Shown here: positions 385 to 31,943 of the stretch, one piece after another
Numbering within the stretch: the stretch's first letter is position 1
Layout of the letters: each line of letters starts with the position of its first letter
Assembly (NCBI GenBank): GCA_051649325.1
Contig: JBOFGW010000290.1
Span: 1 to 33,174 of the forward strand
Length of the DNA stretch: 33,174 nt
Reading direction: 5' to 3'
Source: Burkholderiaceae bacterium
Lineage (GTDB): Bacteria > Pseudomonadota > Gammaproteobacteria > Burkholderiales > Burkholderiaceae_C
Notes under the pieces: generated by a model
What the model saw: the letters and a program-made list of their open reading frames with translations, nothing else
What the model was told of the DNA's origin: nothing
The model's database searches: none
Position numbers and translations under genes: made by a program

Positions 385-3300
385 TTACGGCGCACTCGCC
401 TCCTCACTCCCAATCTGCCGCAAGTATGTCACCAGCCGCGACAAATCAGTGTTGTTGATCGTCACACCGCTATGCGCGCGCACGGCTGCTTCGAGCGTAG
501 CGGCGGAGCCGTCATGCAGATAAGGCCCGGTGGCCCACACATCGCGCAGCGTGGGCACATCCAGCCCGGTCAACGCTGCACCCAGCCGGTTACCGCTGGT
601 GGCTTTGATCGTGCCGATGTTGGGCAGAGCGTTGGTTGCGCTGTTGGTAAACGTAGCGCCGCTATGGCACGAGGCGCAGTTGCGGTTGATGAAGACCGTG
701 CGGCCTAGCGATGCAGTACTGGTCAGCGCGCCGTTTGCTTGCCGCGTGGGGCTTTGATCAAAGGTGGTGAGCGACGCAACATAGGCCGCCAGCGCATCCA
801 GATCCGCGCTCACGCCGGCCTTGGGATCACCCAGTGTTTGGCTGCGGGTGCCGGTGGCCAAGTCTGCGTCGCTCATCAGGCCGGCGCCGCCGGCGAGCAC
901 GCGGATCTGGCCTTCAAAGTCCTGCGTTTCATCAAAGTTGCTGGTCCAGTGTTTGCGGCCATGGCCCACACCGCGGCCGCGCAGGCTGATGGTGTTGCGC
1001 AGGCCTTCGCCAAAACCGGTCAGGTCCCAGGTGCGGCCGTCGTGCCCGCCGTCGTTGTGGCAGGTGGCGCAGCTCATGTAACGGTCGCGCGACAAGCGGA
1101 CATCGCGTGCGTCATAGAACAGCTTCTTGCCTTGCAACACTTGCGGCGTGAGCTTCTCTGTAGTTACTGCGCCAAGCAACGCCACGCTGGGCGCGCTCAA
1201 CTGGCCTTGCGTCAGCAGCGGCTGCAGGTCGTACACACCCACGGTGCGGTCCATGAAGTTGTTGACGTACAGCTTCGTGTTGTCCGGCGAGACCAATAGC
1301 GATTGCGGTGCAAAACCGGTGTCGATGCGCATCAGCTCACGGCGGCGGTGGGCATCCAGCACGGCGATTTCGCGGCTGGTCTCCAGCGCCACAAACAGGA
1401 ACATGCCGCTGTTGTCGTATGCCGCGGCACTGGCAACGCTGGCGTTGTCGTGGTCGATGCGGCCGGCATAGTCTTCGGTGCCGGCGGGCAGCACAATGCG
1501 CGAACTGATGGCGCGCACTGTGTTCTGGAAGTTCAGCGCATTGCCATCACGCAGCGAGCCGCGCTGGATGTTGTCTTGTTTGGAGGGCACAAAGGCCTGC
1601 GTGCCGTCTGGCGAGATGGCTGGCGCATGCAGGTAGTTGGGGATGCCGCGGCCCTGGTTTTCAAAATCTGCCTTGTCGCTATTGCGCAGAACAATGGTGC
1701 GTACGACGGCATAAGGGTTGTTGCGGTTGACCTGCACCACCTCGCCGCCGCGCACTACACCGCCCGCGTTGGGATCCACCGCGGCGGTTGCCTCGCCCGG
1801 CATGAAGGGCGTGACAAAGCGCGAGACGTAAATCGCAAACTGATCCGACGCGATCGACAAATGGCGCGGATTGGCACCCACATTCACCGCGTTGTGGTAG
1901 CTGTACTCCACGGTGCGGTACTTGCGGATTTGCCCCAGCGCTTCCAAGATCACCATGGCAATGGTGCCGTCTGGCGTCATGGCAATGCCGTGCGGCTGCG
2001 AGGCGCGCGGCAACTCAATCGTGCGCACCACCTGGCCCAGATTCGGATCAATCACCGAGATGCTGGCGCTTTGCTTGTTGGTCACCCACAGCATGCCGGT
2101 AGATGCACGGGCAATCGAGCGTGGTGCTGCGCCTACCGGCACTTCAAACAGCTTGGTGTTGGTCACCGTATCAAACGCGCTCACAGTGTCGTTGTCTTGA
2201 TTCACAACCCACAGCCGCGGATTGCCAGCGGCAGGTGCATCCCATGCCAGCAATGACGACTGCGTGGGCTTGCGCGTGGTGAGTGCCAGGCCGATTCTTT
2301 GCATAAAGGTGCGTGACTGCACCTGCCCGCTCACATCGCGCGCGGTCACAGTCACAAAATACACGCCGGGGCCAGGGAAGTTGTAGGACACGGTCGGCGA
2401 CATTGACCAGGGCGTATCGGCCGTGCCATCGCCAAAGTTCCAGCTGTACTGCGTGCCGGCGCCGTTGGCCGATGCGGAGTAGGTCACTGCGTTGCCGGAT
2501 ATGGCCACTGCCGGCGTGCCCGGTTGCTGCAGCGTGAGCGGGGCAAAGCTGCCCAGCGTCCACAAGAACGACGTAGATGCCACCGACGTGCCGTCACTGG
2601 CCGCCACGGTGACAAAATAGCTGCCGAGTTTTTGCGGCGTGCCGGTCATCCAGCCCGTGGTCGGGTCAAGGGTGACGCCGGGGGGCAGACCGCTGGCGGT
2701 GTAGCGCAGCACGTCGCCATTGGGGTCGGTCGCTTGCGCGCGCACCGACACGGCATTGCCGGCCAGACCACTCTGATCGGCAATCGCGGTCATCACCGGC
2801 ACTTGTGCAGCATCGCGCGCAGGTGGCACGTTGACGCGCACGATCTTGGCGACTGACGGAACGCCACTCGCATCAAAGACAAACAGCATGTAAAAGCCCG
2901 GCGGCGTATCGGTCACGCGTGAGGGCATGTGCACCTGCACCGCCTGCGCGCCGTCCACCGGCGCGTCTACATGAAACGGCAGGTCAACAAAGCGCTGGTC
3001 GCTGTTCCAAGTATGTGATGCAGAGCCTGAGCGCACCAGTGTCACGCGCGATACCGGACCTGCGCCGGTCTGGATGCCAAAGGTGTTACCCGGCTCCACC
3101 ACCGTGGGCGCCGTATTGATCACGGGCCGCGGTGCACGGTTGCCAGCTGCATCAAACAGATACGCGGGGTAATAGATTTCTGCATTGGTGTTGTTTTGCG
3201 GACCTGGCGCGCCGCCGCCGGCCACCAGTACGGTGGCATCGGGCATCAACAGCGATACCGAGTGATACAGCCGCGCTTTGACGGCCAGCGGGCCGATGAT

Positions 3301-4356
3301 CCACTGCCCTGTCACCGGATCCCACACGTCGGCGCTGTAGCTCACGCCGTTCATCACGTTCCATTCCAAGCTGCCGCCGGTGGCCAGCACGCGGCCATCG
3401 GCCATAACAGAAGTGCTGCCCAGCACGCGCTGGGTGTTCGCGGCCTCGGTCGGCACGCGCACCGGTGCGCCGCTGTTCAAATTGATCACGGTTGCAGCGT
3501 TGGAGTTGGAAGCGAGTTGCAAGATCATGCCCGGCCGGTACATCGCGGAGCCATTGCTATTGCCAGTCTGCGCGCCGGGAATCGTGCCCGCCGCGGTGAT
3601 GGTACCGGTGCCCGTCGGGTCGATGTAGTACTGGCGGCTGCCTCCGTCAAAGCCAAAGATGCGGCCATCCGGTGCGATCCAGTTGCGCGGGTACATCCAG
3701 CTCATTGAATTCGTGTCCACTGAAGACAGCAGCCGGAATGTGCCATCCAGTTGCCGAACTTCAGGCCGGTCCTGCCCACCCGCGCCACCCTGCACATAAA
3801 TTTCGCCGTTCATCAGCGTGGTGGTGGATGAATACCAGCGCGGGCGATTCATGTTGATGCCGCGTGTGAGCGAATTGTCGCGGTAGTCGAACAAGTTGGC
3901 GTTGTTGTTGCCGGTGTTGGTGGTGCGCGTGCCGGTCCAGTTGTCGCCGCCGGCGATGAATGCCTCGCCGGTCAGGGGCAGCAGGGTTTGCGAGCTGCAG
4001 AAAATATCGGTCGCAGTGCCGTTGGGGTAACTCGTGTGCGCTTCAATGCCGGTGCCCAGCGCCGGATCCCACACAGCGTAGTCAAAGAACGCGGTCTGCT
4101 GGCCGCTCGGGCGCGTGCCAAAGCTCATCACCCTGCCATCGGGTAGCACCAGCGCGTGGATTGGAATCACCGGCCAGGGCACCACCGGCCCCCACTGTCC
4201 ACCGACCTGCGGCGTGGTGTCAAAGGTTTTGCTCTTGCCGCCCGTGGCGTTGCTGCGGTCCGGCGCGTCTTGCGGCGCCATCGCGTAGCCAACACTGAAT
4301 TCCGGCGGCATATCTGGCTGGGTGCTCACGCCGCTGACGTCGGGCCCGCTGTCCAC
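385..4356 (-). CDS. Large secreted multidomain protein. N-terminal galactose-oxidase/glyoxal-oxidase-like radical copper oxidase (kelch propeller + DUF1929-like). Then an Ig-like (He_PIG-type) domain, a PKD domain, a YVTN-type beta-propeller, and a C-terminal di-heme cytochrome c peroxidase (CCP/MauG family) domain.
   Basis: A 1,323-aa ORF whose listed start is GTG at 4356. Galactose-oxidase-like motifs are present: DIFCSS (Cys228 equivalent), RWYSSTTT (Tyr272 equivalent), LYHSVSLLMPDATVLVAGGG (Tyr495/His496 equivalent) and SASHTWNSDQRFVDL (His581 equivalent). The PKD signature YSWNFGDGT is present, as are repeated YVTN-like propeller blades. Two CxxCH heme motifs (CATCH, CASCH) are followed by PTLRDVWATGPYLHDGSAATLEAAV, which matches the CCP signature PxLRNVALTAPYFHDGS. 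The true start is probably ATG at 4479 (see the separate feature). Confidence 0.8.
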   Translation of the reverse strand: MDSGPDVSGVSTQPDMPPEFSVGYAMAPQDAPDRSNATGGKSKTFDTTPQVGGQWGPVVPWPVIPIHALVLPDGRVMSFGTRPSGQQTAFFDYAVWDPALGTGIEAHTSYPNGTATDIFCSSQTLLPLTGEAFIAGGDNWTGTRTTNTGNNNANLFDYRDNSLTRGINMNRPRWYSSTTTLMNGEIYVQGGAGGQDRPEVRQLDGTFRLLSSVDTNSMSWMYPRNWIAPDGRIFGFDGGSRQYYIDPTGTGTITAAGTIPGAQTGNSNGSAMYRPGMILQLASNSNAATVINLNSGAPVRVPTEAANTQRVLGSTSVMADGRVLATGGSLEWNVMNGVSYSADVWDPVTGQWIIGPLAVKARLYHSVSLLMPDATVLVAGGGAPGPQNNTNAEIYYPAYLFDAAGNRAPRPVINTAPTVVEPGNTFGIQTGAGPVSRVTLVRSGSASHTWNSDQRFVDLPFHVDAPVDGAQAVQVHMPSRVTDTPPGFYMLFVFDASGVPSVAKIVRVNVPPARDAAQVPVMTAIADQSGLAGNAVSVRAQATDPNGDVLRYTASGLPPGVTLDPTTGWMTGTPQKLGSYFVTVAASDGTSVASTSFLWTLGSFAPLTLQQPGTPAVAISGNAVTYSASANGAGTQYSWNFGDGTADTPWSMSPTVSYNFPGPGVYFVTVTARDVSGQVQSRTFMQRIGLALTTRKPTQSSLLAWDAPAAGNPRLWVVNQDNDTVSAFDTVTNTKLFEVPVGAAPRSIARASTGMLWVTNKQSASISVIDPNLGQVVRTIELPRASQPHGIAMTPDGTIAMVILEALGQIRKYRTVEYSYHNAVNVGANPRHLSIASDQFAIYVSRFVTPFMPGEATAAVDPNAGGVVRGGEVVQVNRNNPYAVVRTIVLRNSDKADFENQGRGIPNYLHAPAISPDGTQAFVPSKQDNIQRGSLRDGNALNFQNTVRAISSRIVLPAGTEDYAGRIDHDNASVASAAAYDNSGMFLFVALETSREIAVLDAHRRRELMRIDTGFAPQSLLVSPDNTKLYVNNFMDRTVGVYDLQPLLTQGQLSAPSVALLGAVTTEKLTPQVLQGKKLFYDARDVRLSRDRYMSCATCHNDGGHDGRTWDLTGFGEGLRNTISLRGRGVGHGRKHWTSNFDETQDFEGQIRVLAGGAGLMSDADLATGTRSQTLGDPKAGVSADLDALAAYVASLTTFDQSPTRQANGALTSTASLGRTVFINRNCASCHSGATFTNSATNALPNIGTIKATSGNRLGAALTGLDVPTLRDVWATGPYLHDGSAATLEAAVRAHSGVTINNTDLSRLVTYLRQIGSEEASAP

Positions 4357-4479
4357 CAGCGTATCTTCGCCGCCGCCGCAGGCGACAACGCTGGCGCCCA
4401 GCGCGAGCGCGGCTCACAATTGAAGAACAGAACGATAGCGCGTGCTTGTGGCGCGCGCGGCCCCTGTGAGATTTTTCAT
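4357..4479 (-). other. N-terminal lipoprotein signal-peptide segment of the large oxidase/peroxidase gene. It is separated from the main ORF by a single in-frame TGA at 4414-4416 (minus strand), suggesting a possible pseudogene or a sequencing error.
   Basis: On the minus strand, ATG at 4479-4477 follows a strong SD (AGGGAG, 8 nt upstream). It encodes MKNLTGAARATSTRYRSVLQL-TGA-AALALGASVVACGGGEDTLVDSG... The lipobox is VVAC. The stop is in frame with the 385..4356 ORF (60 nt, or 20 codons, to the GTG). Confidence 0.6.
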
Positions 4480-4820
4480 TTTTCCAGCTCCCTAATGCTG
4501 CACATCCAGCGGCGCCGCTCTTGGATAAGCTTTTGGCACCGCAAGTCATCCTAGGGAGCGCGGCAGTGTTGTGCAATCGTCAACGGCTTGTGCGCCCCAT
4601 GTTTGACTAGAACCCGGTAGAACGCTGTGCGTTGTGCGCATATTCGTTTCATTTGCTTTACGTTGCGCACTGCCTAAGACATGTGAGTGCAATACCTACC
4701 AAAATGTGTAGAGCGCCATGCAAATGACGGCAAAAGGTGGAATGCGGATTGCTCCTGCGCTAGAGTGTTTTGGAGAGCCGCGTATCCCCGCGGCCCCGCA
4801 TCCGCCCTAGGAGGTGTGCC

Positions 4821-5825
4821 ATGCGTGCTTTGCTCATCGCTGCCGCAATCGCGGCTTTCGTCTCTGCTCCCGTCACTCAGGCTCAGACCACCCGTAACGA
4901 CACCTATGCCGCGCGCAATACGGCGCTGGCGCAGCAGTTGGCCGACTCAATCGTGACCATCCGCGCGCAGATTGTGGATGGCGCCGCCACGGCAGAAACG
5001 CTGGGCCGCGCGCGCGCAGGGTCGGGCATTTTGATTGGCCCTAATTTGGTGCTGACGATCGGCTATCTGGTCATGGAGGCCGACAAGGTCGAAGTGGTCG
5101 GGCCAGACGGCAAGACCACGCCGGTGACCCGCATCGGCTATGACCACACGACCGGCTTTGGCCTGCTGCGCACGCTGCTGCCGGTGCGCGGCAAGGCGCT
5201 GGATTTGGGCGACTCGGACGCGTTGCCCGCGCAAAGCAAGGTGCTCACCATCGGTGCCGGCGAAGATGAGGCGGTGGAAATCGCCGTGCTCGCGCGTGAA
5301 CGTTTTGTCGGCAGCTGGGAATACGCGATCGACCGCGCGATCTACACCTTTCCGCCGGTAGAAAACTGGAGCGGTTCGGCGCTGGTGAATGAAGACGGCA
5401 AACTAGTGGGTGTGGGCTCACTCATCCTGCGCAACGCGGCAGGCACCGATATGCCCGGCAATATGTGGGTGCCGGTGAATCTGCTCAAGCCGATTTTGAA
5501 CGACTTGGCTGAGCGTGGCCGCGCCGGCGGCGCTGTGAAACCGTGGCTAGGCATGACGGTGGACGAAATGGCCGGCGCACTCGTGGTCTCGCGCGTGACG
5601 CGCGGCGGCCCGGCGCATGCGGCCGGCGTGCGGCGCGGCGATGTGGTGGTGGGTGTGGGCGATGTGAACACCAAAAGCCTGGCCGAGTTCTTTGACAGCG
5701 TATGGGCCACCGGCGCGCCCGGCGTGCAGGTCAAAGTGCGCATGCTGATCGACAGCGGCCCGCGCGACGTGACCATCACCACCATGGACCGGCGGGACTT
5801 TTTGCGCCAGCAGACGGTGCAGTGA
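4821..5825 (+). CDS. Secreted trypsin-like (S1C/HtrA-like) serine-protease-fold protein with a C-terminal PDZ domain. The catalytic His and Asp are apparently substituted, so it may be a pseudoprotease.
   Basis: ATG at 4821 is preceded by AGGAGG. The signal peptide reads MRALLIAAAIAAFVSAPVTQAQ. A Ser-region motif, NWSGSALVNEDGKLVGVGS, resembles GNSGGPLVN. The PDZ-like region is GALVVSRVTRGGPAHAAGVRRGDVVVGVGDV. The His position reads TIGYLV rather than TNNHVV. The ORF track begins earlier, at 4770. Confidence 0.65.
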   Translation: MRALLIAAAIAAFVSAPVTQAQTTRNDTYAARNTALAQQLADSIVTIRAQIVDGAATAETLGRARAGSGILIGPNLVLTIGYLVMEADKVEVVGPDGKTTPVTRIGYDHTTGFGLLRTLLPVRGKALDLGDSDALPAQSKVLTIGAGEDEAVEIAVLARERFVGSWEYAIDRAIYTFPPVENWSGSALVNEDGKLVGVGSLILRNAAGTDMPGNMWVPVNLLKPILNDLAERGRAGGAVKPWLGMTVDEMAGALVVSRVTRGGPAHAAGVRRGDVVVGVGDVNTKSLAEFFDSVWATGAPGVQVKVRMLIDSGPRDVTITTMDRRDFLRQQTVQ

Positions 5826-6004: not shown

Positions 6005-6868
6005 TTACTTGGTCCGCATCCGCGAAACGATCACCTCTTTCTTGGCGCGGCTGATGCCCCAGATCGTGCCAGGGTCGCTGCGGTCCCACGCGATGCCTTG
6101 GCCGTTCACGTTCAGCGGCACGGTTTCAACCAGCTCAAGAATCGAACCCATCTTGGGCAAGCGCAGCACATAGGTTTCTGTGTGGTCGTGGCCTGTCACG
6201 TAGAGCAATCCGTCCGGCCCCCACGAGCCGCCAGAGATACTCATCGGTTCAGCGCGCTTGATGACTTCGGTAGGAAATATCCAGGCTTGCTCGATCTTCC
6301 ACTTGTCATCCATTTTCACAAGCGTCGTCCAGTAACTGTTGCCGTAGGGCCGCTGGTTGGTGCCAAACACGCGGCTGTAGTTGCCAAACACCGCCCACCA
6401 CGCGCCGTCGTGCCGGTCAATCCACGTGCATGAACCCAGCATGATGCCAAAGCTGTGCGTGCCGATGTGCTTCATCGTCGCCGCGTCGATGATCTCCACC
6501 GAGCTGGTCATCGGCTCTTGCGGATAGTTGGAATGGCTCGCGTAGATCTTGCCGTCGATCACCACGCCGCTGTCAAAGTGAATGATCGGCCCGTCTTTGG
6601 GCATCTCGAACTTGCCGACGAGCTGGCCGGTGTTTTTGTCGTACTTGCCAATCGCAAAGTTGGTGACCGGATAAAAGTGCTGCTTGTCCACCGCAACGCC
6701 CTGGTGCGCCTCGGGCGCGGGGAAGCGTTTGAGTTCGGTGAATTCGCGCACCGTCGGTTTGGCGGCCGGGGTGGCTTGCTGCGCCAACGCGGGCGCGGTG
6801 AATATGGCCACTGCAAATGCCAAGCTGAGTAGAGATCTCTTCAAGATGCCCCCGGAATAGTTGGTCAA
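6005..6868 (-). CDS. Secreted hypothetical protein (N-terminal signal peptide; family not recognised).
   Basis: ORF of 287 aa. The N-terminus, (M)KRSLLSLAFAVAIFTAPALAQQ, is a typical Sec signal. Likely starts are TTG at 6868 or TTG at 6844, the latter preceded by GGGGG. Coding-like composition. Confidence 0.55.
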   Translation of the reverse strand: MTNYSGGILKRSLLSLAFAVAIFTAPALAQQATPAAKPTVREFTELKRFPAPEAHQGVAVDKQHFYPVTNFAIGKYDKNTGQLVGKFEMPKDGPIIHFDSGVVIDGKIYASHSNYPQEPMTSSVEIIDAATMKHIGTHSFGIMLGSCTWIDRHDGAWWAVFGNYSRVFGTNQRPYGNSYWTTLVKMDDKWKIEQAWIFPTEVIKRAEPMSISGGSWGPDGLLYVTGHDHTETYVLRLPKMGSILELVETVPLNVNGQGIAWDRSDPGTIWGISRAKKEVIVSRMRTK

Positions 6869-18602: not shown

Positions 18603-18632
18603 AAAAAAGCCCGGTACTTGCCGGGCTTTTTT
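18603..18632. terminator. Bidirectional rho-independent terminator (AAAAAA-GCCCGG-TACTTG-CCGGGC-TTTTTT)
   Basis: The 6-bp GC stem (18609-18614 and 18621-18626) is flanked by an A-run and a T-run. It lies between the convergent Roadblock gene (stop 18580) and the BLUF gene (stop 18631). Confidence 0.8.
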
Positions 18633-20166
18633 ATGTTGCATCCGCCTGCGCCAGCGCGTCTTTCCATTGCCCGGCCAGGTACTGCACCATGCCCATATTC
18701 AGGTCTGCATCGCGCAGCACCACCCGCACCCAGAGATCGCCGCCACTGCCCGGTACGCTCAGCAGCGCCAGCCATTCAAACGTGCCCCCGCCATGGCTGC
18801 AGGTGAACTCCAGCGGCGCACCGGGCGCCTGTTGGCTACGCATATGTGCCAGGGCCTGCAGCAGATCGGCCGGCGCCTGCTCGGGCGTGCTGGCCGCCAC
18901 CAGATGGTGATTGTCCTGCGACCAAGCGGCCCACGACTGCACCGCGCCCTGGCTTGAAAAAATGCGCTGCAGCGTTTGCGCAAGCGCGGGCGGTGATGCT
19001 GGCGCAGGCGTAGTTACGGCAACCGGCTTGACTGCAACCACCGGCTGCGCAGCGATCGCAGGGGCAGCGCCAACCTTGCCGGGCGCGGCGCGCGGCGAAA
19101 AAACCGTCTCGGCCGATGCCGCGGATACCGCCCATTCATGCTGCACAAAAAAGCGCTCGGCCGCGGCGCGGATCTCGTCCCACACCGCGCTGGGCTCGGC
19201 CAGATGCGAAAACACCACTTGCGCTGTAAAGCCCTGCTCCTGCGCATACGCGCGAAAACGCTCAGCGCTGAGTGTCGACTTAGGCGTAAAAACGCCGATG
19301 ACCACGGGCTGGATACTGCGCATGCTGGCGGTGGCCAGAATTTTTTGCGCAAAGGCCAGCGTTTCGGCCGGCGAGGCGCTGCGAAACAGCATCGCCAACA
19401 CCTGCGTCTGCTGGTTCAGCAGCTCAAACAAAGACGATTGCACCATCCAACCGCTGATACAACTAAGCCGCATGTGGGTGCCCTTGCGCAGGGGAATGTC
19501 CACGTACTCGCACAGGGCCGCCTCGTCGGGCACCGCCGGCGCGTTGAACCAGGTGCGGCTGATGCGCTTGATCTGCGCGGTATCTGCCACATGCCGCACC
19601 AAGGCAGAGGGCCAGATGGAGTTGGTCGCCACGACGCACACGCGCGTATACCTGAACGGCCCTGCCTCGCGCTGGTTGTTGGGCGCATCAGCCGGCTTAA
19701 CCAGGCCGCGCACCAGATCGGCGGCGCTCCAACCGCCGCTGCGCGAGCGCAGCACCACCGCGTCGGCGCGGGCGCGCACGTCTTCTGCGGTCTCGGTGCG
19801 CTTGGCCACACAGACCATCCAGTCATCAGCCAACACTGGCTCGTGGGCATCAAACAGCAGCACGTGGTAGTCACTGTGGCGCGGATCGCGCTGCAAGCGT
19901 TCGTTGAGCGTTTGCAGCGCCGGCAGCGGGCCTTCCAGCCATTGCATGAAAAACCCGCCCATGTAGATCAACGCGCCGCGGATGTGATGCGCCGTGTTGT
20001 GCTTGCACGCCTGTGCCTCGATCTGCACCAGCTCGCGCATGATGTCGCCCTGCACCTGCGAGCGGCTGATGTACACCAGTGTGTGCGAGGCGTTGCCGGC
20101 AGTTTGATCGCGTGAGTCGGGCACGGTTGTGATGAGGTACGTATAAGGCAAATTGGCCGCGTGCAA
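18631..20166 (-). CDS. BLUF (blue-light FAD sensor) domain protein with a long C-terminal extension. The extension has a middle domain of unknown type, an Ala/Pro-rich linker and a C-terminal Roadblock-like segment.
   Basis: The BLUF motifs are the conserved Tyr in HTLVYISRSQ and IRGALIYMGGFFMQWLEGP...RDPRH. The exact start is uncertain: TTG at 20166, or a GTG just before YISRS. The first in-frame ATG would remove the conserved Tyr. Confidence 0.65.
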   Translation of the reverse strand: MHAANLPYTYLITTVPDSRDQTAGNASHTLVYISRSQVQGDIMRELVQIEAQACKHNTAHHIRGALIYMGGFFMQWLEGPLPALQTLNERLQRDPRHSDYHVLLFDAHEPVLADDWMVCVAKRTETAEDVRARADAVVLRSRSGGWSAADLVRGLVKPADAPNNQREAGPFRYTRVCVVATNSIWPSALVRHVADTAQIKRISRTWFNAPAVPDEAALCEYVDIPLRKGTHMRLSCISGWMVQSSLFELLNQQTQVLAMLFRSASPAETLAFAQKILATASMRSIQPVVIGVFTPKSTLSAERFRAYAQEQGFTAQVVFSHLAEPSAVWDEIRAAAERFFVQHEWAVSAASAETVFSPRAAPGKVGAAPAIAAQPVVAVKPVAVTTPAPASPPALAQTLQRIFSSQGAVQSWAAWSQDNHHLVAASTPEQAPADLLQALAHMRSQQAPGAPLEFTCSHGGGTFEWLALLSVPGSGGDLWVRVVLRDADLNMGMVQYLAGQWKDALAQADAT

Positions 20167-25137: not shown

Positions 25138-26172
25138 CTAGTGTGTAGTTTCGGTCTTCACATGCCAAGCGGCATCACGCTGCTCAATCACAAATCGCAC
25201 CGGCAAGAACTGCGCAATTGTCTGCGCATTGGTGCGTGTGTGCTGCGTGATTTCATTGGCTACGAATTCGCCCGCGTTATTGTCTCTAGCGGCCAGCGCT
25301 TGCAGCAGCATGAGTTGATCAGCCAAATGCGGCCCCACCGGCGCGTGCGATTTTTGATAATCACGCAGCTCGCTCACCAACCGTTTGGCCACTTCGTCTG
25401 AACTCACCGCTTTCTCGCCAAACTGCGTGAACACTTCTGTCACGTGTTCATACGCGAGCGTGGCGATCAGCGCGTTGCCCGGCCCTTCGTTCTGGCGCGT
25501 GCCGCCGTGACGCAGTTGGTCACCGCTCCAGCCCATCGCCGCGCCCAGCACCTCTAGCTCGCGCGCGGGCACGCTGCGCGGCAGGCCGGGCGCGAGCGCT
25601 TCTGCGTACGCGTCAACAGGCGCGCCGCGCTGCGTGAGTGTGATGGGTTTGAGCTGCGCGGCCGGATAAATCACCGCTGTCATCTCACCCCCGCCCGCCG
25701 GATAAAACCCGTGGCGGCGCAAGCTGAGCTGCAGATCCGCACCCGCGCGGCGCACCAGCGGTGCAAACGCCTGCTGCAGAAAATGAAACGGCGGCGCCAT
25801 TGGGTTATGCGTGCCGCCCGCTAAATGAATCGTGCTGGCTGCATCGGCCAGCAGCAGCGGCGGCAACACCGTTTGCAGCACCAGCGTGCAAGACCCCGCG
25901 CTACCCACCGCAAAACTGTACTCGCCCGCCTTCACTTTGCCCGACGCAAACACCAGTTGCTGCGAATTCAATTCCGCACCTTCCACCTGCGCACCACACA
26001 CCGCCTGCGCCGCCTGCACGCAGGTGAGATGCTGCCGCATCAGCCCCGGCTTGGGCCGCTTCGCGCGAATGCTGTGCATGCGAAACGGCTTGCCCGTCAC
26101 CATCGACAAGGCCAGCGAAGTCCGCAAAATTTGTCCACCGCCTTCTCCGGCGGAACCGTCGATTTCAATCAC
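25138..26172 (-). CDS. rtcA: RNA 3'-terminal phosphate cyclase
   Basis: The protein is collinear with E. coli RtcA: IEIDGSAGEGGGQILRTSLALSMVTGKPF, RPKPGLMRQHLT, FAVGSAGSCTLVLQTVLPPL and RHGFYPAGGG. The GTG start overlaps the upstream gene's stop by 8 nt. Confidence 0.93.
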   Translation of the reverse strand: MIEIDGSAGEGGGQILRTSLALSMVTGKPFRMHSIRAKRPKPGLMRQHLTCVQAAQAVCGAQVEGAELNSQQLVFASGKVKAGEYSFAVGSAGSCTLVLQTVLPPLLLADAASTIHLAGGTHNPMAPPFHFLQQAFAPLVRRAGADLQLSLRRHGFYPAGGGEMTAVIYPAAQLKPITLTQRGAPVDAYAEALAPGLPRSVPARELEVLGAAMGWSGDQLRHGGTRQNEGPGNALIATLAYEHVTEVFTQFGEKAVSSDEVAKRLVSELRDYQKSHAPVGPHLADQLMLLQALAARDNNAGEFVANEITQHTRTNAQTIAQFLPVRFVIEQRDAAWHVKTETTH

Positions 26173-27274
26173 TTTTTTCTTCTCTTCGCCGAGTTACTTT
26201 TTTCTTTCCTCGTTCGAGCTTCTTTTGGTACTCCATCCATCCGCTGTGAAAACCTTGGTCAGCACGACTAGCCCAAGTTTCAAAAAGACTACCCAGGACT
26301 AAAGAGTCGACACTCGGAACAAGATGTAGGACTGCTTTGCCCGTCCGTACTAGAGATGACACCGTTAGGACTCCCGGCTCAGTAAGCCCTGCATTGCTAG
26401 GTCCAGCAAGAAGAATCTTGCCTTGGCTTTGATCATCCAAACCAAGCCTAAACATCACACCTTTTGCACTGGCATGAACGTTTTGGCTAGCAAATTTGTA
26501 GTACGGTCTCAAATATTCGTAGCCAGTGAACTCTTCCAGATCAAAGAAAGTAATCCTCCCGCTCTTAGCAAGCAGCTTTGCGGCCCAACCATAGTCTTTG
26601 GCAAAGCTTTCACCATTTGCAGCAATGGCTTTGTTTCGCTCTTTCGTGATCCGAGCCATTGCTTGACTAGATAGCTTTCTTTCACCAAGTGCGGCAGCGT
26701 GCGTTTGATATTGCAAAGCAGCGTGATAGTTCTCGACTGCGACATGAGAACGATAGAGCTGCGAAACGCCAGCTTCGCTATGAGCAAGTACATCGGCCAC
26801 TGTTGCAACTTCGTGCAATGAGCGCCAGCGTGCTATTGCGCCATCTGCGAATCCGTTAAGTAGCAAGTGATATATCTCACTTGAAATCTGAATAGAGCGC
26901 GCATGAAGCTGAGCTACAACGTCGATTCGAATTCTTTCCGCCTCAGAACGACTTCTTCTCAACGCCAGTTTTATTGACGCTTCAAGTTCAATCGACATAT
27001 TGATTAGCTCAAGCAAGCGGTCAAGGCCTGCATTCCAGTTCCGAGCATTGCTTCGTAGGAATTGGCCGTGATCTCTCTTCCACTCGCGAAGCGAATCTCG
27101 CGAGCGCTGGCGCAAACCCTTGGCAAGAACTTTGGCTAAATCACTCGCTATAGCGGGCAGGTCCTGAGCGAGGCGCTCTAGTTTTTCTTTACCTTCGCCA
27201 TGGGACGGAGAAAGCCCCATCTCCGTCAGCTTATCCGCTATCAGCGATTCAAAGATTTTTTGTATTCCTAGCAT
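26165..27274 (-). CDS. Hypothetical protein (369 aa, lower GC) inserted between rtcB and rtcA. Predicted all-alpha. Contains an RWRSLH (Rx4H) motif.
   Basis: A long ORF with coding-like codon usage, noticeably AT-richer than its neighbours. The ATG is at 27274. It is translationally coupled to rtcA. No family was recognised by eye. Confidence 0.6.
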   Translation of the reverse strand: MLGIQKIFESLIADKLTEMGLSPSHGEGKEKLERLAQDLPAIASDLAKVLAKGLRQRSRDSLREWKRDHGQFLRSNARNWNAGLDRLLELINMSIELEASIKLALRRSRSEAERIRIDVVAQLHARSIQISSEIYHLLLNGFADGAIARWRSLHEVATVADVLAHSEAGVSQLYRSHVAVENYHAALQYQTHAAALGERKLSSQAMARITKERNKAIAANGESFAKDYGWAAKLLAKSGRITFFDLEEFTGYEYLRPYYKFASQNVHASAKGVMFRLGLDDQSQGKILLAGPSNAGLTEPGVLTVSSLVRTGKAVLHLVPSVDSLVLGSLFETWASRADQGFHSGWMEYQKKLERGKKKVTRRREEKSD

Positions 27275-27293
27275 TTATTGGCCGCTTGGCTAT

Positions 27294-27415
27294 CCCTTCA
27301 AACACACAACCTACCTCAACATATAAACCACTTCCACCAAATCCCTCTGCGCTCCCATCATCGCATCAATACCCTTGTACGCCATCGGAATTTCATCGAT
27401 CACATCAGCGTCTTT
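27294..27415 (-). pseudogene. Degenerate duplicate of the rtcB 3' end (last ~40 codons), a non-functional fragment
   Basis: The 122 bp are about 88% identical (14 mismatches) to rtcB 28385-28506. Translation gives KDADVIDEIPMAYKGIDAMMGAQRDLVEVVYMLR*VVCLKG, against the rtcB C-terminus KDADVIDEIPMAYKDIDAVMEAQKDLVEVVYTLKQVVCVKG. An internal stop is present. Confidence 0.85.
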
Positions 27416-27474
27416 GCTTGATACAAACTTGTCCGACGCTTTGCGCTGCGTATGCATCAGTGCCCAGATTCCGG

Positions 27475-28365
27475 TTAGTCCTTTTCGCAGTACCAGCGAG
27501 CATTTTTCGCAATCATGCTGTGGGGGCTGTTACATAGGGCTGCGAGCAGGCTTCTCCTCTGCGGAAAATCCATTCGATTTGCCAGCACTACAAAGGCGCG
27601 CCAAGCTATGTTTTTGTCTGTACTGTGCAGGGCTTGCGATATCGGTTCTTTGAGTTCTGATGCCGGCAGTCTTAACACTGGGCGCAACCAGTTTGAGAGA
27701 TGTTTGCTGTCATTGAGATATGCAGGAATCAGCCAAAACGCGTCCGCGCGGCCAACAGAATGTGCGATTGCCCTACTCGCGGCTTCGCCCAGGTGGTACT
27801 CCCAGCTTCTGTAGGCTGCGTTCTCAGCTTCTTTAATCCAATTCCGCAAGCGTTGTATGTTCGCGCTACCTCCCCAACTTCCCAGTACGCCTACTGCCGT
27901 CGTACGAATACCCCACCATTTGCTGCTCAACGCGTTTTCAACTTCCAACTGAGCGCTTTCATCGGGCGCATGGTTGCTCAAGGCGCGTAGACGTGCCGTC
28001 CATTCCCGCAGCAAATCCGCATTGTTCAGCGCGAACTCACGCCGCGTTTTCCGACACCGTAAGCAGCGCACGGCCTGGCTGTCGATGTTTCCTTTGGCAA
28101 TCTCATACCACCACTTTTGCTGTGCCGCGGTCCAAACGCCGTTTGTGCCGCAATCCTTGCACGTAAACGCGCGGTCTTCGTAGAACTTTGGCAGCAGGTT
28201 GTAAGTGCTGTTGTGCGCGAGCTGAGCCGGATCGGCGCTTATTCGGCTCGTGGAACCTGAAGAAGCAGCGAACCGCACATCATTTATTTTTGATTGAAAC
28301 CATGTAGCCGCCCGCTCCTGCCGGCGCTGCATGATTTCTTTTCGGCGTTTTTTGTTGCTTTTCAT
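27475..28365 (-). CDS. Hypothetical protein (296 aa, lower GC) with a basic N-terminus and a CxxC...CxxC zinc-ribbon. Inserted between rtcB and rtcA.
   Basis: The N-terminus is MKSNKKRRKEIMQRRQER. The Zn-ribbon is CKDCGTNGVW...CLRCRK. The gene starts 15 nt after the rtcB stop. No family was recognised. Confidence 0.6.
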   Translation of the reverse strand: MKSNKKRRKEIMQRRQERAATWFQSKINDVRFAASSGSTSRISADPAQLAHNSTYNLLPKFYEDRAFTCKDCGTNGVWTAAQQKWWYEIAKGNIDSQAVRCLRCRKTRREFALNNADLLREWTARLRALSNHAPDESAQLEVENALSSKWWGIRTTAVGVLGSWGGSANIQRLRNWIKEAENAAYRSWEYHLGEAASRAIAHSVGRADAFWLIPAYLNDSKHLSNWLRPVLRLPASELKEPISQALHSTDKNIAWRAFVVLANRMDFPQRRSLLAALCNSPHSMIAKNARWYCEKD

Positions 28366-28380
28366 TTTCCAGTTTTTTTG

Positions 28381-29613
28381 CTAGCCCTTCACGCACACCA
28401 CCTGCTTCAACGTATAAACCACCTCCACCAAATCCTTCTGCGCTTCCATCACCGCATCAATGTCCTTGTACGCCATCGGAATTTCATCGATCACGTCGGC
28501 GTCTTTACGGCATTCCACGCCGGCGGTGGCTTTGATTTGGTCTTCGATGGTGAACAGTTTTTTGGCTTTGGTGCGGCTCATGGTACGGCCGGCGCCATGG
28601 CTGCATGACTGGAAGCTTTCCGGGTTGCCTTTGCCGCGCACGATGTAGCTGCGCGCGCCCATGCTGCCCGGAATAATCCCCAGCTCGCCTTTTTTGGCGC
28701 TTACCGCGCCTTTGCGCGTGACAAATACCTCTTCACCAAAGTGCGTCTCTTTTTGCACGTAGTTGTGGTGGCAGTTCACGGCTTCGATATGCGTTTCAAA
28801 CGGCTTGGTGATCACTTTGCGGGTGGCACCGATCACGCGCTGCATCATCACCTCACGGTTTAGGCGCGCGAACTTCTGCGCCCAGCCCACGCCGCGCACG
28901 TAGTCACCAAAGTATGTGCTGCCTTCTTCAAAGTAGGCCAAATCCTGGTCTGGCAAATTGCGTTGATGCTGCTCGGCGTCTTTCTTAGCCAGCTCGATAA
29001 ACAGATTGCCCATAGCGTTGCCCACGCCGCGTGAACCGCTATGTAGCATGAACCACACCGCGCCTTCGGTATCCAAACACACCTCGATAAAGTGGTTGCC
29101 GCCGCCCAGCGTACCCATGTGGCGGTGGTTGTTGGTGTTTTTCAGACGCGGGTAGTCTTCACAAATCTGCTCAAACTCCTCGGCCAATTGCGCCCAAGCG
29201 GCATCTGCCTCGTTGGGCGGCGTTTCCCAAGAGCCTTTGTCACGGTTTGAACCTTCACGGCGAAACTGCTTGGGGCTCATGCCGTGCGGCACGGCCTTTT
29301 CAATCTCGGCGCGCAGCGCGCTCAAGTTATCCGGCAAATCTTCCGCGCGCAGCGTGGTCTTGCAGGCAATCATGCCGCAGCCAATATCCACGCCTACCGC
29401 CGCAGGAATAATCGCCTTGAAGGTAGGAATCACGCTGCCCACAGTAGCGCCAATGCCGTAGTGAACATCCGGCATAGCGGCGATGTGTTTGAAGATCACC
29501 GGTAGCTTGGCAGCGTTTTCCAATTGCTTGCGCGCTTCGTCTTCCACCGGCACGCCGCGCGTCCACATCTTCACGGGTACGCCGCCGGGGACTTCGTTCA
29601 ATTCGTAGTTCAT
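28381..29613 (-). CDS. rtcB: RNA-splicing ligase RtcB
   Basis: Collinear with E. coli RtcB from MNYELNEVPGGVPVKMWTRGVPVEDEARKQL to the C-terminus DEIPMAYKDIDAVMEAQKDLVEVVYTLKQVVCVKG. Metal-ligand His/Cys motifs are conserved (HNYV, CSHGAGR). Confidence 0.95.
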   Translation of the reverse strand: MNYELNEVPGGVPVKMWTRGVPVEDEARKQLENAAKLPVIFKHIAAMPDVHYGIGATVGSVIPTFKAIIPAAVGVDIGCGMIACKTTLRAEDLPDNLSALRAEIEKAVPHGMSPKQFRREGSNRDKGSWETPPNEADAAWAQLAEEFEQICEDYPRLKNTNNHRHMGTLGGGNHFIEVCLDTEGAVWFMLHSGSRGVGNAMGNLFIELAKKDAEQHQRNLPDQDLAYFEEGSTYFGDYVRGVGWAQKFARLNREVMMQRVIGATRKVITKPFETHIEAVNCHHNYVQKETHFGEEVFVTRKGAVSAKKGELGIIPGSMGARSYIVRGKGNPESFQSCSHGAGRTMSRTKAKKLFTIEDQIKATAGVECRKDADVIDEIPMAYKDIDAVMEAQKDLVEVVYTLKQVVCVKG

Positions 29614-29626
29614 TTTTTTCTTTCGG

Positions 29627-30085
29627 TCAATTTGCTAGATCATTACTCATTACCCAAACGCCGCCTTCGTGGCTGTACGCGAGTCCGAGCTTTCCAGGCA
29701 CGATTGACACAAACCCTTCTAGAAAGCGAGGTGCATGTTGTTTTAGAAAGGCGTTCAAAGTGCATTGGAATATTTGCGGTTGCCGACTTCGAAAGTGACC
29801 ACAGGCCAAAGCAGTGCAAACCCGCTCAAGGTGCGGCCGTAGAAAGACTTCCGTTATCTTTTCAGTAGTCATTGGCGGCACGTTGTCATAGCAACTGCCA
29901 GGCCAAACATCGATTGGCGAAATTCTGTCCCACCGCTCCTCTGAGCGCGATAGCAAGTACTCCCAACGCTCTGCTTTTTCGGGCGCAAAGGTCTTGAAGA
30001 GCGTTATCAAGTCTCCCTTAGCTGCCGCGGCTTCCTCCAGCGTCATGACATTCCCATTTAAGAACTTCATAAGGTGATTTCTCAC
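29627..30085 (-). CDS. Hypothetical protein (about 150 aa, lower GC), immediately upstream of rtcB in the same operon
   Basis: The listed ORF starts at GTG 30085; an ATG at 30070 gives MKFLNGNVMTLEEAAAAKG... It is AT-richer than the flanking rtcB and SPFH genes. No family was recognised. Confidence 0.5.
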   Translation of the reverse strand: MRNHLMKFLNGNVMTLEEAAAAKGDLITLFKTFAPEKAERWEYLLSRSEERWDRISPIDVWPGSCYDNVPPMTTEKITEVFLRPHLERVCTALACGHFRSRQPQIFQCTLNAFLKQHAPRFLEGFVSIVPGKLGLAYSHEGGVWVMSNDLAN

Positions 30086-30198
30086 TGACTAATGCTGGTG
30101 GCTTCTTCAAAAGCTAAAGAGCTGTTTTCATGAGGGAAGGCCCAAACGGCCCTCCCTCCCACCCGCCATCTCAATTGATGGCGGGGTCAACAACAGTT

Positions 30199-31338
30199 TT
30201 AGCGCACTTTGATCAAGCTGTTCAGTACGCCATCCAGGCCGCCAAATACAGAGATCTTGTCGATCCGTTCGGCGATCTTCTCCAACGTTTCCAACTCCTT
30301 CATCCGCAATGCGGTGGGGTTGTCTTCCATCACCTTGGCCGTGTTCAGCAAAGACCGCGTTGCGGCAGTCTCTTCACGGCGGCGGATGTTGTTGGCTTGC
30401 GCCGTCTTTTCCGCCTCAACAACCTTGGCCAAGATGGCTTTCATCTCACCAGGCAAGATAATGTCTTTCACTCCCACGCTTTGCAGTGCCACGCCGTAGC
30501 CGGCCAATTTGTCGGTCACCGCGGCTACGACCACTTGGTCGATCACGTTGCGGTTTTCCAGCAACTCGTCCAGCAAACGCGTACCTACTGCCGCACGCAA
30601 GCCCAATTGCAGCTCGCGGTACAGCGCTTCAGCGGGCTGATTCAATTGCGTGAAGGCCTTGAGCACATCGGTGTACTTGAAGGTGGCAGACAAATTCAGG
30701 CGCAGGGCCACTTTGTCTTTGGTCAAAATTTCTTGACCAGTCACCTCCAAGGACTGCAAACGCATGTCCACAATCTCTACCGACACCTCGCGGCCAAAGC
30801 GCCAGAACGCATACGCACCGGGGCTGAGCAACTGCATCAACTTGCCGTCTACACGCAGCACACCGCTGGCGTAATCAGGCACGGTGGTTTGCAGCACCGC
30901 ATTCAAGCCAGCCACCGCACGCGCACGCAACTGGGTCTGCGTCAAACGCTTGGCCAGCGCCGCATCCACCTGTACTTGCTCGGCGATTTCAACCGCTTGC
31001 ACGCGTACATCGCGCAGGCCTTTCCAGTACAAGCGCCGGGTTCCGGGCGGCAGCAATTCAACCAGCACGCCGTCTTCAAAGCGCAAACCCGCCTGCGTTT
31101 CTGCCAGCTCAACCCGCACAAACTCTTGCGCCACGATGTCTGGCGCAGAAGCCATCAAATAGTCAGCCACCGGGTTTGCAAACGCGGGCTGTGCCAAGTC
31201 AAAGCGTTCGATGCGCAGCTTGTTCAGTGGGTCAAACAGCGCGTACGCACCAGGCGCCAAAATGCGCTGGAAGTCGCCGCTTTTGAACAGCAAGGCTTTT
31301 TCAGTTTTTTTGATGACGAATCGCTTCAACATTTTCAT
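30199..31338 (-). CDS. SPFH/band-7 (stomatin/prohibitin/flotillin/HflKC-like) domain protein. It has an N-terminal extension and no obvious transmembrane anchor.
   Basis: The C-terminal half, TKDKVALRLNLSATFKYTD...GVALQSVGVKDIILPGEMKAILAKVVEAEKTAQANNIRRREETAATR...LRMKELETLEKIAE, is typical SPFH plus coiled coil. SD AGAGAGGAA precedes ATG 31338/31332. Confidence 0.7.
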   Translation of the reverse strand: MKMLKRFVIKKTEKALLFKSGDFQRILAPGAYALFDPLNKLRIERFDLAQPAFANPVADYLMASAPDIVAQEFVRVELAETQAGLRFEDGVLVELLPPGTRRLYWKGLRDVRVQAVEIAEQVQVDAALAKRLTQTQLRARAVAGLNAVLQTTVPDYASGVLRVDGKLMQLLSPGAYAFWRFGREVSVEIVDMRLQSLEVTGQEILTKDKVALRLNLSATFKYTDVLKAFTQLNQPAEALYRELQLGLRAAVGTRLLDELLENRNVIDQVVVAAVTDKLAGYGVALQSVGVKDIILPGEMKAILAKVVEAEKTAQANNIRRREETAATRSLLNTAKVMEDNPTALRMKELETLEKIAERIDKISVFGGLDGVLNSLIKVR

Positions 31339-31655
31339 TTTCCTCTCTCATTTTCTTTACTTTTTTGTGTACCCTTTGCGCAGCAGGCGGCGGGCTATTG
31401 GGCGGACGTTGAATGATTGCTGCTGCCGCTACCAACGCGCCGTGGCACGCTAGCGTGAACAACCCATTTATTCACATCAGCCCAGCAGCGCAAGCAAACT
31501 TCTTGCGCCTGCTGCGGGTGTTGGGCACTGCGCATCTTGCACACCCGGCTGCAATACTGCCAGCCGTGCGTGACGTTTGCGCCGCACCCGCAACCTTCGG
31601 GCACTTTCCCTGGTTTCCCAGGGCACTGCATCGACAAAACACGTTTCTTAGACGT

Positions 31656-31729
31656 GTGTTCAGGCAGGAGTCGAACCTGCGACAACCGGAGTTGCCCCCG
31701 GGGCTCTAACCAATCTGAGCTACAGAACG
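31656..31729 (-). ncRNA. tRNA-like structured RNA element 1: canonical D-arm and T-arm, defective acceptor and anticodon arms. Possibly a Y-RNA-like tRNA mimic or a tRNA pseudogene.
   Basis: The minus-strand sequence is CGTTCTG-TA-GCTC-AGATTGGTTA-GAGC-...-GCAGG-TTCGACT-CCTGC-CTGAACA. The D-stem and T-stem are perfect and the T-loop is TTCGACT. The acceptor stem has 5 of 7 bp (C1·A72 and U6·U67 mismatches). The anticodon stem has a mismatch, the loop is GGGCAAC (no U33), and no CCA is encoded. Confidence 0.45.
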
Positions 31730-31740
31730 GCGCGATCACG

Positions 31741-31870
31741 GGGAATCGAACCCACAGCTCTTTCGAGCGCCAACCTTGGCTGTTCGCATATCCAATCGCG
31801 TGCAGTGCAGCGGCATACACCAAGATCACACCCGGTCTGGGTGAACTGGCGCACCGGCGGGGTAGATGTT
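31741..31870 (-). ncRNA. Structured RNA element 2 adjacent to element 1. It has a T-loop-like hairpin (GGG-TTCGATT-CCC), a GNRA-capped hairpin (GCTC-GAAA-GAGC) and other stems. It is not a canonical tRNA.
   Basis: Minus-strand features: ...GCCAAGGTTGGC (palindrome), GCTCGAAAGAGC and CTGTGGGTTCGATTCCCCG. It is non-coding and lies between the candidate sigma54 promoter and the first gene of the rtc operon. Confidence 0.35.
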
Positions 31871-31926
31871 TTCTAAACCCCTGACCTGTGAGCGTGCATC
31901 GTCGTTTGATCAGATGCTTGAGATAT

Positions 31927-31943
31927 AGCGATTGGTGTGCCAG
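31927..31943 (-). promoter_or_regulatory. Candidate sigma54 (-24/-12) promoter driving the minus-strand rtc operon
   Basis: Minus strand reads TGGCAC-ACCAA-TCGCT. The GG-N10-GC spacing is correct, -24 TGGCAC is perfect, and -12 is TCGC versus consensus TTGC. It is divergent from rtcR, whose product is a sigma54 activator. An AT-rich region (31950-32055) lies upstream for the UAS/IHF. Confidence 0.5.

Follow-up and report, generated by a model that had tools for sequence, protein, structure and literature searches.

How copper radical oxidases are activated, and how they protect themselves from the peroxide they make, in nature is unsettled, and the examples available so far are two pairs of separate proteins, GlxA-DtpA and the fungal AlcOx-PerOx (alcohol oxidase-peroxidase) pair. 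A gene on the minus strand of a 33,174-nucleotide stretch of DNA from a Burkholderiaceae bacterium (GenBank assembly GCA_051649325.1, contig JBOFGW010000290.1, positions 1 to 33,174; hereafter the window, by which we mean the whole stretch) bears on this question. It encodes a predicted copper radical oxidase, a series of spacer domains, a beta-propeller and a predicted dihaem domain of the cytochrome c peroxidase (CCP)/MauG superfamily. Judging from the sequence and from the analogy with the known pairs, we consider it about an even call that the protein is a tethered copper radical oxidase with a peroxide-using haem partner, that is, a self-activating and self-protecting oxidase. Such a fusion would be a covalent version of the GlxA-DtpA and AlcOx-PerOx pairs.

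The copper radical oxidase half

Residues are numbered here on the 1342-aa translation downstream of an in-frame TGA codon (385-4413, minus strand) that is discussed below. The original prediction, made from the letters of the DNA, had assigned to the N-terminal part every hallmark residue of galactose or glyoxal oxidase, and this assignment holds. The motifs DIFC139SS, RW193Y194SS, LY383H384S and SH467TWN were verified in the translation; C139, Y194, Y383, H384 and H467 align with C228, Y272, Y495, H496 and H581 of galactose oxidase, and these five cofactor and ligand residues are invariant in all 40 aligned relatives. When the first 519 residues of the open reading frame (ORF) that starts at GTG 4356 were used to search the PDB, the oxidase half aligned end to end with a galactose oxidase (9g8h/9g43; E 1.8e-44; residues 43-508 of the query segment), as well as with the Fusarium enzyme 1gof (E ~2e-29) and with GlxA over the C-terminal part of GlxA (4unm, E 4.6e-20). 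The AlphaFold2 (AF2) model of residues 62-720 has a mean predicted local distance difference test score (pLDDT) of 88.7, and in a Foldseek search of the PDB it retrieved 9g43 as the best match (E 4.6e-33, root-mean-square deviation (rmsd) 3.0 Å, 28% identity); the top 27 matches are all copper radical oxidases, including bacterial and fungal galactose oxidases and GlxA. By alignment and model, this half has a genuine copper-radical-oxidase fold in which no catalytic residue is missing.

With the galactose oxidases of Pseudoarthrobacter siccitolerans (9g43/9g8h) and Fusarium (1gof), the oxidase half shares the seven-bladed kelch propeller followed by an E-set domain, the Cys-Tyr pair, the axial Tyr and the two His ligands. 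Unlike these enzymes, it has no N-terminal carbohydrate-binding domain, has a Trp directly before the cofactor Tyr and no counterpart of Trp290 in a shorter loop, and is fused to some 800 further residues that include two haem sites. The invariant Trp193, immediately before Tyr194, occupies the position of Trp288 in GlxA of Streptomyces lividans, another bacterial radical copper oxidase in which a Trp precedes the cofactor Tyr (W288-Y289). The overall match to GlxA is only moderate: besides the E-value given above, the NCBIfam score is 109 bits against a cut-off of 800.

The dihaem domain, the propeller and the spacers

Pfam annotation recovered Glyoxal_oxid_N, GO-like_E_set, He_PIG, PKD, YNCE/Vgb, CCP_MauG and RoxA-like_Cyt-c domains (Table 1), so that the immunoglobulin (Ig)-like, PKD and YVTN modules lie between the oxidase and the haem domain as originally proposed, and the two CxxCH motifs and the CCP signature PTLRDVWATGPYLHDGS that had been read in the C-terminal part are present as well. 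There is no stop codon between the oxidase and the haem domain, and the objection that the two might be separate genes is therefore inapplicable.

A profile of the dihaem domain, built from 43 diverse members of the family, matched the gamma subunit of hydrazine synthase (HZS) best in the PDB (5c2v_C, 1.9e-23), followed by Shewanella CcpA (1e-21), Nitrosomonas CCP (1.4e-18) and Pseudomonas aeruginosa CCP (4.8e-14); the match to MauG (~2e-8) extends over only about 35 residues. The features of the superfamily are kept, namely both CxxCH motifs, the inter-haem Trp and the PTLRDV..PYLHDGS motif, and the domain shares with the bacterial CCPs (1eb7, 3o5c, 1iqc) and MauG (3l4m) the same spacing of the CxxCH motifs, the Trp and PTLRxV..PY.HDG. 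Unlike in these proteins, the dihaem domain is here always preceded by a PKD domain and a seven-bladed propeller. The NCBIfam scores fall far below the respective cut-offs (66 bits against 1250 for hydrazine_BC, 53.9 against 443.85 for the MauG family TIGR03791, 23.7 against 150 for CytoC_perox), and neither the full-length match to TIGR03791 nor the His/Tyr haem that characterize MauG were found. In terms of sequence, the domain is a member of the CCP/MauG superfamily that lies outside every characterised family within it.

The propeller is modelled by AF2 with a pLDDT above 90 over most of its length and consists of four-stranded blades with conserved insertions in blades 4 and 5; the one in blade 5 contains the highly conserved motif SKQDNIxRGxLRDGxxLNFQN. 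In a Foldseek search with the model of the C-terminal part, which is driven by the confident propeller, HZS beta ranks first (5c2v_B; E 4.4e-18, template-modelling (TM) score 0.76 on the target, rmsd 3.1 Å). The entire C-terminal half is thus laid out like HZS beta and gamma of Kuenenia (5c2v), which are fused in some anammox bacteria ('hydrazine_BC'), with a seven-bladed propeller followed by a CCP-like dihaem domain; the NCBIfam hydrazine_BC model matches the window protein at 1.6e-18, and the second haem, which is bis-His ligated in HZS (haem gamma-II; PMC12758564), is predicted from sequence to be so here. In contrast to HZS, Trp1156 takes the place of gamma-His144, a position that is Trp in CCP and MauG too, and the family occurs in aerobic heterotrophs, whereas a 2025 survey of HZS homologues reported only anaerobic Planctomycetota and Desulfobacterota. 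No gene resembling the alpha subunit was found in the window or in the related loci. We considered membership in the HZS family and rejected it, given the score of 66 against 1250 bits, the differences in key residues and the lack of an alpha subunit.

The spacer between the oxidase and the propeller has a median length of 198 aa but differs widely within the family, its extremes being about 190 and more than 1500 aa, and C-terminal extensions (PA14, GLEYA and others) add 0 to 1564 aa; the window protein is the minimal form of the family. In most annotated members, including several without an oxidase, a PKD domain immediately precedes the propeller. The lengths of the spacer bear directly on the suggestion, contained in the original prediction, that peroxide is channelled within the molecule. 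A rigid tunnel from the copper site to the haem, like that for the intermediates of hydrazine synthesis, would fit the resemblance of the propeller and dihaem domain to HZS beta and gamma, which are part of a tunnel system (PMC12758564), as well as the conserved loop insertion in the propeller. However, at least two Ig-like domains lie between oxidase and propeller, and the variation of the spacer among relatives is not expected of a fixed tunnel; we consider such a channel improbable. This variable, multi-domain spacer points instead to coupling by proximity on a flexible tether.

Spread, conservation and copper supply

A protein search detected 2764 relatives at E <= 1e-5; the statements on domains that follow are based on 120 listed relatives. 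Coverage of the query is at least 60% for each of the 120 and at least 93% for 118 of them, and the oxidase, Ig/PKD and CCP Pfam domains are present in every one. Their database names ('YVTN family beta-propeller protein', 'PA14 domain-containing protein', 'DUF1929 domain-containing protein') are uninformative. When genomes were scanned at one per species, a relative was found to be encoded in at least 582 of them, spread over several phyla. The statements on loci are based on the best 80: most of these match from about residue 70 through to the end, and the fused oxidase and the order of the domains are kept in all 80. The hosts within Burkholderiales include Piscinibacter, Rubrivivax, Ideonella, Rhizobacter, Methylibium, Rivibacter, Variovorax, Sphaerotilus, Undibacterium and a Burkholderia; other hosts belong to Methylophilaceae, Steroidobacteraceae, Verrucomicrobiota, Acidobacteriota, Polyangiales, Chloroflexota, Thiotrichaceae and Methylopila. 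Among the cultured strains with an intact orthologue are Rivibacter subsaxonicus DSM 19570 (L022), Rhizobacter sp. Root1221 (L053, L075), Methylibium sp. Root1272 (L041), Variovorax robiniae (L051) and Undibacterium curvum (L084). Tandem oxidase-dihaem paralogues are seen in Variovorax robiniae (L051, 3376-8994 and 9201-14840) and also in L054 and L070.

A HMMER search with the propeller-dihaem part alone yielded 1392 clusters at 50% identity (E <= 1e-30). The best 150 cluster representatives, proteins of 680 to 3000 aa, retain at least 47% identity over the whole 628 residues, and hidden Markov models made from our own family alignment identified a full oxidase in 112 of them; most of the other 38 are N-terminally truncated metagenomic fragments.

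No account of an oxidase-dihaem fusion turned up in full-text searches of the literature. The earlier claim that the architecture is undescribed thus stands to that extent, while the architecture itself turns out to be common and conserved. The superfamilies of the parts and the idea of an oxidase working with a peroxidase are already known; the new elements are the covalent fusion, the HZS beta-gamma-like dihaem partner with its predicted bis-His haem, and the size and spread of the family.

Clustering of all ORFs in 84 loci revealed a single recurrent neighbour, a SCO1/SenC copper chaperone of about 210 aa, the gene for which, in 19 of about 80 loci, adjoins the fusion gene and has the same orientation (for example, L034:5093-5719, L073:5124-5768, L075:9629-10267 and L083:5248-5880); the other recurrent clusters proved to be artefacts, namely antisense or overlapping ORFs. 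In one relative (P0042, from a Woeseia metagenome-assembled genome (MAG)), a Sco domain is fused inside the protein itself. There is no Sco gene within the window. The adjacency of Sco supports the view that the oxidase is a working cuproenzyme.

Predicted function of the fusion

The intact orthologues are probably Sec-exported, lipid-anchored oxidoreductases of three parts: the copper radical oxidase, the He_PIG and PKD spacers, and an HZS beta-gamma-like propeller that would be packed against the dihaem domain, with Trp1156 predicted to sit between the two haems. As we envisage it, a Sco-type chaperone would deliver copper, the Cys-Tyr link would form, and the oxidase would oxidise an alcohol or aldehyde group, which probably belongs to a glycan, by two electrons and hand these to O2, with release of H2O2. 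The tethered dihaem module would then react with this H2O2 at haem 1, which probably has an open distal side. The resulting high-valent haem could both clear the damaging peroxide and restore the active Cu(II)-tyrosyl radical by re-oxidising Cu(II)-tyrosine, the off-cycle form, the same role as that of horseradish peroxidase in vitro, of DtpA for GlxA and of CorPerOx for CorAlcOx; the remaining electrons could come from periplasmic donors via the bis-His haem. Coupling would depend on proximity on the flexible tether and would involve no fixed tunnel. The tyrosyl radical couple of galactose oxidase lies at about +0.4 V; a ferric bis-His haem cannot regenerate the radical, whereas a peroxide-activated haem could. 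This potential argues against a simple model of a dehydrogenase with a cytochrome acceptor.

The two known pairs offer the closest precedents for a tethered, peroxide-using partner. Copper radical oxidases need an initial one-electron oxidation, typically provided by peroxidases (PMC12951238). In Streptomyces lividans, the haem peroxidase DtpA acts on the peroxide made by GlxA, and both DtpA and Sco are needed for the maturation of GlxA (PMC4736821); in Colletotrichum and Magnaporthe, the alcohol oxidase CorAlcOx and the peroxidase CorPerOx are co-expressed, co-secreted and interdependent (PMC9770985). The link to a Sco copper chaperone is common to the GlxA system and the present family. Unlike DtpA, which is a Tat-exported, b-type dye-decolourising peroxidase (DyP), the haem partner is here fused to the oxidase and belongs to the c-type dihaem CCP superfamily; furthermore, the hosts are Gram-negative, the protein is a lipoprotein, and no cslA-like glycan synthase gene is found nearby. 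With the fungal pair, in which a dedicated peroxidase activates the oxidase, the family shares the pairing of a copper radical oxidase with a haem partner, but the fungal system consists of two secreted proteins, the second being a plant/fungal class II (AA2) peroxidase, whereas here a single polypeptide carries an unrelated dihaem fold.

From the sequence of the dihaem domain we infer that it would consume peroxide, and a number of observations weigh against this and against the tethered-oxidase reading as a whole. On the oxidase side, the loop that carries the stacking Trp290 in galactose oxidase is two residues shorter and lacks a Trp. On the haem side, the column equivalent to the CCP axial ligand Met275 contains His in 42 of the 43 family members and Met in one, so that the His/Met ligation of CCP is not found. 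In the profile alignment with 1eb7, the segments that contain the His71 switch loop and the NPxEM Glu114 of CCP fall into gaps; the peroxidatic pocket residues Gln104 and Glu114 likewise lie in gapped segments of this profile alignment, in a region where the model is of low confidence (pLDDT 30-60 for the AF2 model of the haem domain), so that structural counterparts may exist. The best relative of solved structure, HZS gamma, acts on nitrogen species and not on peroxide. About 10 apparently complete relatives have no oxidase, and the copy in the window contains a premature stop codon. The earlier designation of the C-terminal part as a dihaem cytochrome c peroxidase is thus apt at the level of the superfamily but too specific, considering the His in place of Met, the alignment gaps at the His71 loop and Glu114, and the closer match to HZS gamma. 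A column filled by His in 42 sequences and by Met in one is what an axial ligand would be expected to show, and haem 2 is probably bis-His ligated via His1314, like haem gamma-II of hydrazine synthase.

The relatives without an oxidase deserve separate consideration. P0191 (L085:8001-10046) is a 681-aa lipoprotein that consists of the propeller-dihaem module, and its gene is located near those for a GMC oxidoreductase and a molybdenum hydroxylase, both from families able to produce peroxide; P0236 (L086:2806-5610) contains a PKD domain and the propeller-dihaem module and appears to be complete. We looked for split pairs of oxidase and dihaem genes near such relatives and rejected this arrangement, as no separate oxidase gene was found beside these two. 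The existence of these proteins and the lack of an adjoining oxidase gene imply that the propeller-dihaem module has a role of its own.

This raises the alternative that the activities are independent and merely share an anchor, with the PKD-propeller-dihaem part being an autonomous enzyme or electron-transfer unit and the oxidase an interchangeable passenger. The module could act on a small redox-active molecule, by comparison with HZS gamma, or exchange electrons with periplasmic cytochromes, and the passenger domains would share a cell-surface scaffold or polymer. The propeller-dihaem part is the most conserved portion of the family, its best solved relatives are HZS beta and gamma, the canonical CCP pocket residues are not seen in the alignment, and the linker and the terminal extensions are highly variable, all of which supports this alternative, as do the complete proteins without an oxidase described above. 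Yet about 75% of the representatives contain a full oxidase, and more do so once N-terminal fragments are excluded; the fusion of the oxidase in the same order in the best 80 loci is hard to explain without functional coupling, and partnerships of oxidases with peroxidases have been documented independently (PMC4736821, PMC12951238, PMC9770985). We regard independent activities, the chief rival to the tethered oxidase, as rather unlikely, while giving the idea some weight.

A different kind of coupling would be that of a MauG-like maturase, in which peroxide or O2 would convert the haems to a bis-Fe(IV) state that oxidises remote side chains and thereby makes or repairs a protein-derived cofactor of the adjoining domains, be it the Cys-Tyr link or a different one. 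Against a maturase speaks the autocatalytic formation of the Cys-Tyr link, for which the characterised copper radical oxidases use Cu and O2, and so does the existence of relatives without an oxidase. The haem ligand Tyr294 of MauG, which we take to occupy the position aligned with CCP Met275 and His1314, has no equivalent here, as the His at this position does not predict a His/Tyr haem, and the match to MauG is much weaker than those to the CCPs and HZS gamma. The placement in the CCP/MauG superfamily, the retained inter-haem Trp and the requirement of GlxA maturation for DtpA and Sco (PMC4736821) are the arguments for a maturase, which we nevertheless think quite implausible.

More ambitious than the tethered, self-activating oxidase, and in our view unlikely, is the proposal that these proteins represent an unrecognised class of self-sufficient extracellular oxidases, in which an HZS beta-gamma-like module taken over by aerobic bacteria would capture the peroxide of the fused oxidase, form a high-valent oxidant, sustain the tyrosyl radical and perform a second oxidation, such as the cross-linking or cleavage of a cell-surface polymer. 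If this were the case, one polypeptide would reduce O2 to water using copper, a protein radical and two haems, and the family would constitute the first large group of aerobic relatives of HZS beta-gamma.

As a natural fusion that is conserved in hundreds of species under strong purifying selection, the family offers a one-protein test system for the coupling of an oxidase to a haem. In biocatalysis, enzymes of the galactose oxidase type currently need added peroxidase and catalase, and the fusion could yield a self-activating oxidase. The C-terminal half, in turn, links the beta and gamma subunits of anammox hydrazine synthase to a large aerobic group, that of the 1392 clusters, and so bears on the origin of this enzyme.

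The in-frame stop codon

The original prediction of a single 1,360-aa lipoprotein is borne out in that both halves belong to one gene and a lipobox is present; a TGA at codon 22 (Table 1), which separates the ATG from the lipobox, is at odds with it. The signal peptide reads MKNLTGAARATSTRYRSVLQL, then the TGA, then AALALGASVVAC followed by GGG, so that a signal peptide and lipobox contiguous with the start codon are seen in the orthologues but not in the window copy. The longest uninterrupted ORF (385..4356, 1323 aa) starts at GTG 4356, downstream of the lipobox Cys, and its product would therefore not be exported. Neither the ORF list nor the translation shows a start codon (ATG, GTG or TTG) in the stretch from the TGA to the lipobox Cys, which rules out an alternative start that preserves export. 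A lipobox-like motif is present within the first 70 residues in 96 of the 120 listed homologues.

The closest homologue, P0001, from a Pseudomonadota MAG, has 1363 aa and 95% identity and is collinear from the same ATG; it has CAATTG-CTG-GCC where the window has CAATTG-TGA-GCC. Four further relatives have Leu or Met at this position, and the homologues follow the pattern QLL[AG]A. Recoding of the TGA, by selenocysteine insertion or programmed read-through, was considered and rejected, since the codon falls into the core of the signal peptide, homologues have Leu there, and no other sign of recoding is seen. The TGA is the sole defect across 1364 codons. Compared with the P0001 gene, the window gene has a synonymous divergence (dS) of 0.56 and a ratio of nonsynonymous to synonymous divergence (dN/dS) of 0.057 (0.03-0.08 for the individual domains), that is, it has been under strong purifying selection, so any inactivation must be very recent.

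The TGA thus reflects an error of sequencing or assembly, or else a very recent inactivation that has produced a fresh pseudogene. A second copy of the sequence was sought by exact-protein look-up, with the ORF and the LysR gene next to it as queries, and by two DNA-pattern scans of metagenome contigs for the region of the TGA; none was found. We hold it to be a possibility of substance, if on the doubtful side, that the stop codon is real and the gene a recently inactivated pseudogene, the product of which would be cytoplasmic and contain neither haem nor lipid. The in-frame TGA with no start codon between it and the lipobox Cys, and the CTG at the same position in the orthologue, suggest as much; on the other side stand the solitary nature of the defect, the low dN/dS, which leaves room for a very recent inactivation at most, and the fact that a base-calling or assembly error may account for the TGA. 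For the window copy to yield a full-length lipoprotein, the TGA would have to be a sequencing error or be subject to read-through. A stop codon in the export signal calls for caution with inferences about the source organism from the window gene.

Table 1. Positions in the window of the gene, its signals, domains and predicted functional residues
Feature	Position	Strand	Remarks
Whole gene	385..4479	-	ATG 4479..4477 to stop 387..385; 1364 codons, one interruption
Shine-Dalgarno GGGAG	4488..4492	-	8 nt 5' of ATG; kept in L001
In-frame TGA, codon 22	4414..4416	-	within hydrophobic core of signal peptide
Lipobox V-V-A-C	4378..4389	-	lipidated Cys12, then GGG
Copper radical oxidase catalytic domain, 7-bladed kelch propeller, residues ~70-428	3130..4206	-	Pfam Glyoxal_oxid_N + Kelch
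Cys139, predicted thioether partner (= Fusarium galactose oxidase Cys228)	3997..3999	-	40/40 relatives
Trp193-Tyr194	3832..3837	-	Tyr194 predicted cross-linked equatorial Cu ligand (= Tyr272); both invariant
Tyr383-His384, predicted axial Tyr and equatorial His Cu ligands (= Tyr495, His496)	3262..3267	-	PDB alignment
GO-like E-set (DUF1929) domain	2833..3129	-	Pfam PF09118, 1.3e-19
His467, predicted Cu ligand (= His581), in E-set domain	3013..3015	-	PDB alignment
He_PIG Ig-like spacer, residues 539-619	2557..2799	-	Pfam PF05345, 1e-12
PKD domain, residues 628-705	2299..2532	-	Pfam PF00801 + PF18911, 4e-11
Seven-bladed YVTN beta-propeller	1171..2250	-	TIGR02276, YNCE; Pfam YNCE/Vgb
Dihaem CCP/MauG-superfamily domain, last 258 residues	388..1161	-	Pfam CCP_MauG 1.5e-9, RoxA-like_Cyt-c
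Haem motif 1, C1115-A-T-C-H1119, putative catalytic haem	1057..1071	-	invariant
His1155-Trp1156	946..951	-	Trp1156 aligns with P. aeruginosa CCP inter-haem Trp94; invariant 43/43
Haem motif 2, C1246-A-S-C-H1250, predicted electron-transfer haem	664..678	-	invariant
PTLRDVWATGPYLHDGS signature	505..555	-	common to CCP, MauG and hydrazine synthase gamma
His1314	472..474	-	aligns with P. aeruginosa CCP Met275 axial ligand; predicted sixth ligand of haem 2

Genomic context in the window

In the window, the fusion gene stands alone: it is flanked by a divergent gene for a trypsin-like protease with a PDZ domain (HtrA/DegP-like; 4770-5825, plus strand), the position of which is kept only in the closest relatives, L001 and L002, and further on by an ORF for a secreted protein, a LysR regulator and ordinary chromosomal genes. 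The ORF for the secreted protein (6005-6868, minus strand; 287 aa), which the LysR and trypsin/PDZ genes enclose, begins with a sequence resembling a signal peptide and matches no Pfam family; it is absent from L001 in a stretch that is otherwise syntenic, and is probably a strain-specific insertion.

The far end of the window (25138-33174) is occupied by an Rtc RNA-repair cluster that comprises RtcA, a DUF5677 gene, a treble-clef/HEAT protein, RtcB, an SPFH/Band7 protein, a tRNA-Cys gene (31656-31729) and RtcR, the last of which extends past the end of the window. The GC content of this cluster is 50-57%, compared to 60-65% elsewhere in the window, and the GC content at third codon positions (GC3) of the DUF5677 gene is only 0.42; the cluster may be a horizontally acquired block beside a tRNA gene. 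Another gene in the window (18631-20166, minus strand) encodes a 511-aa protein in which about 400 residues without an assigned domain follow an N-terminal BLUF blue-light sensor domain.

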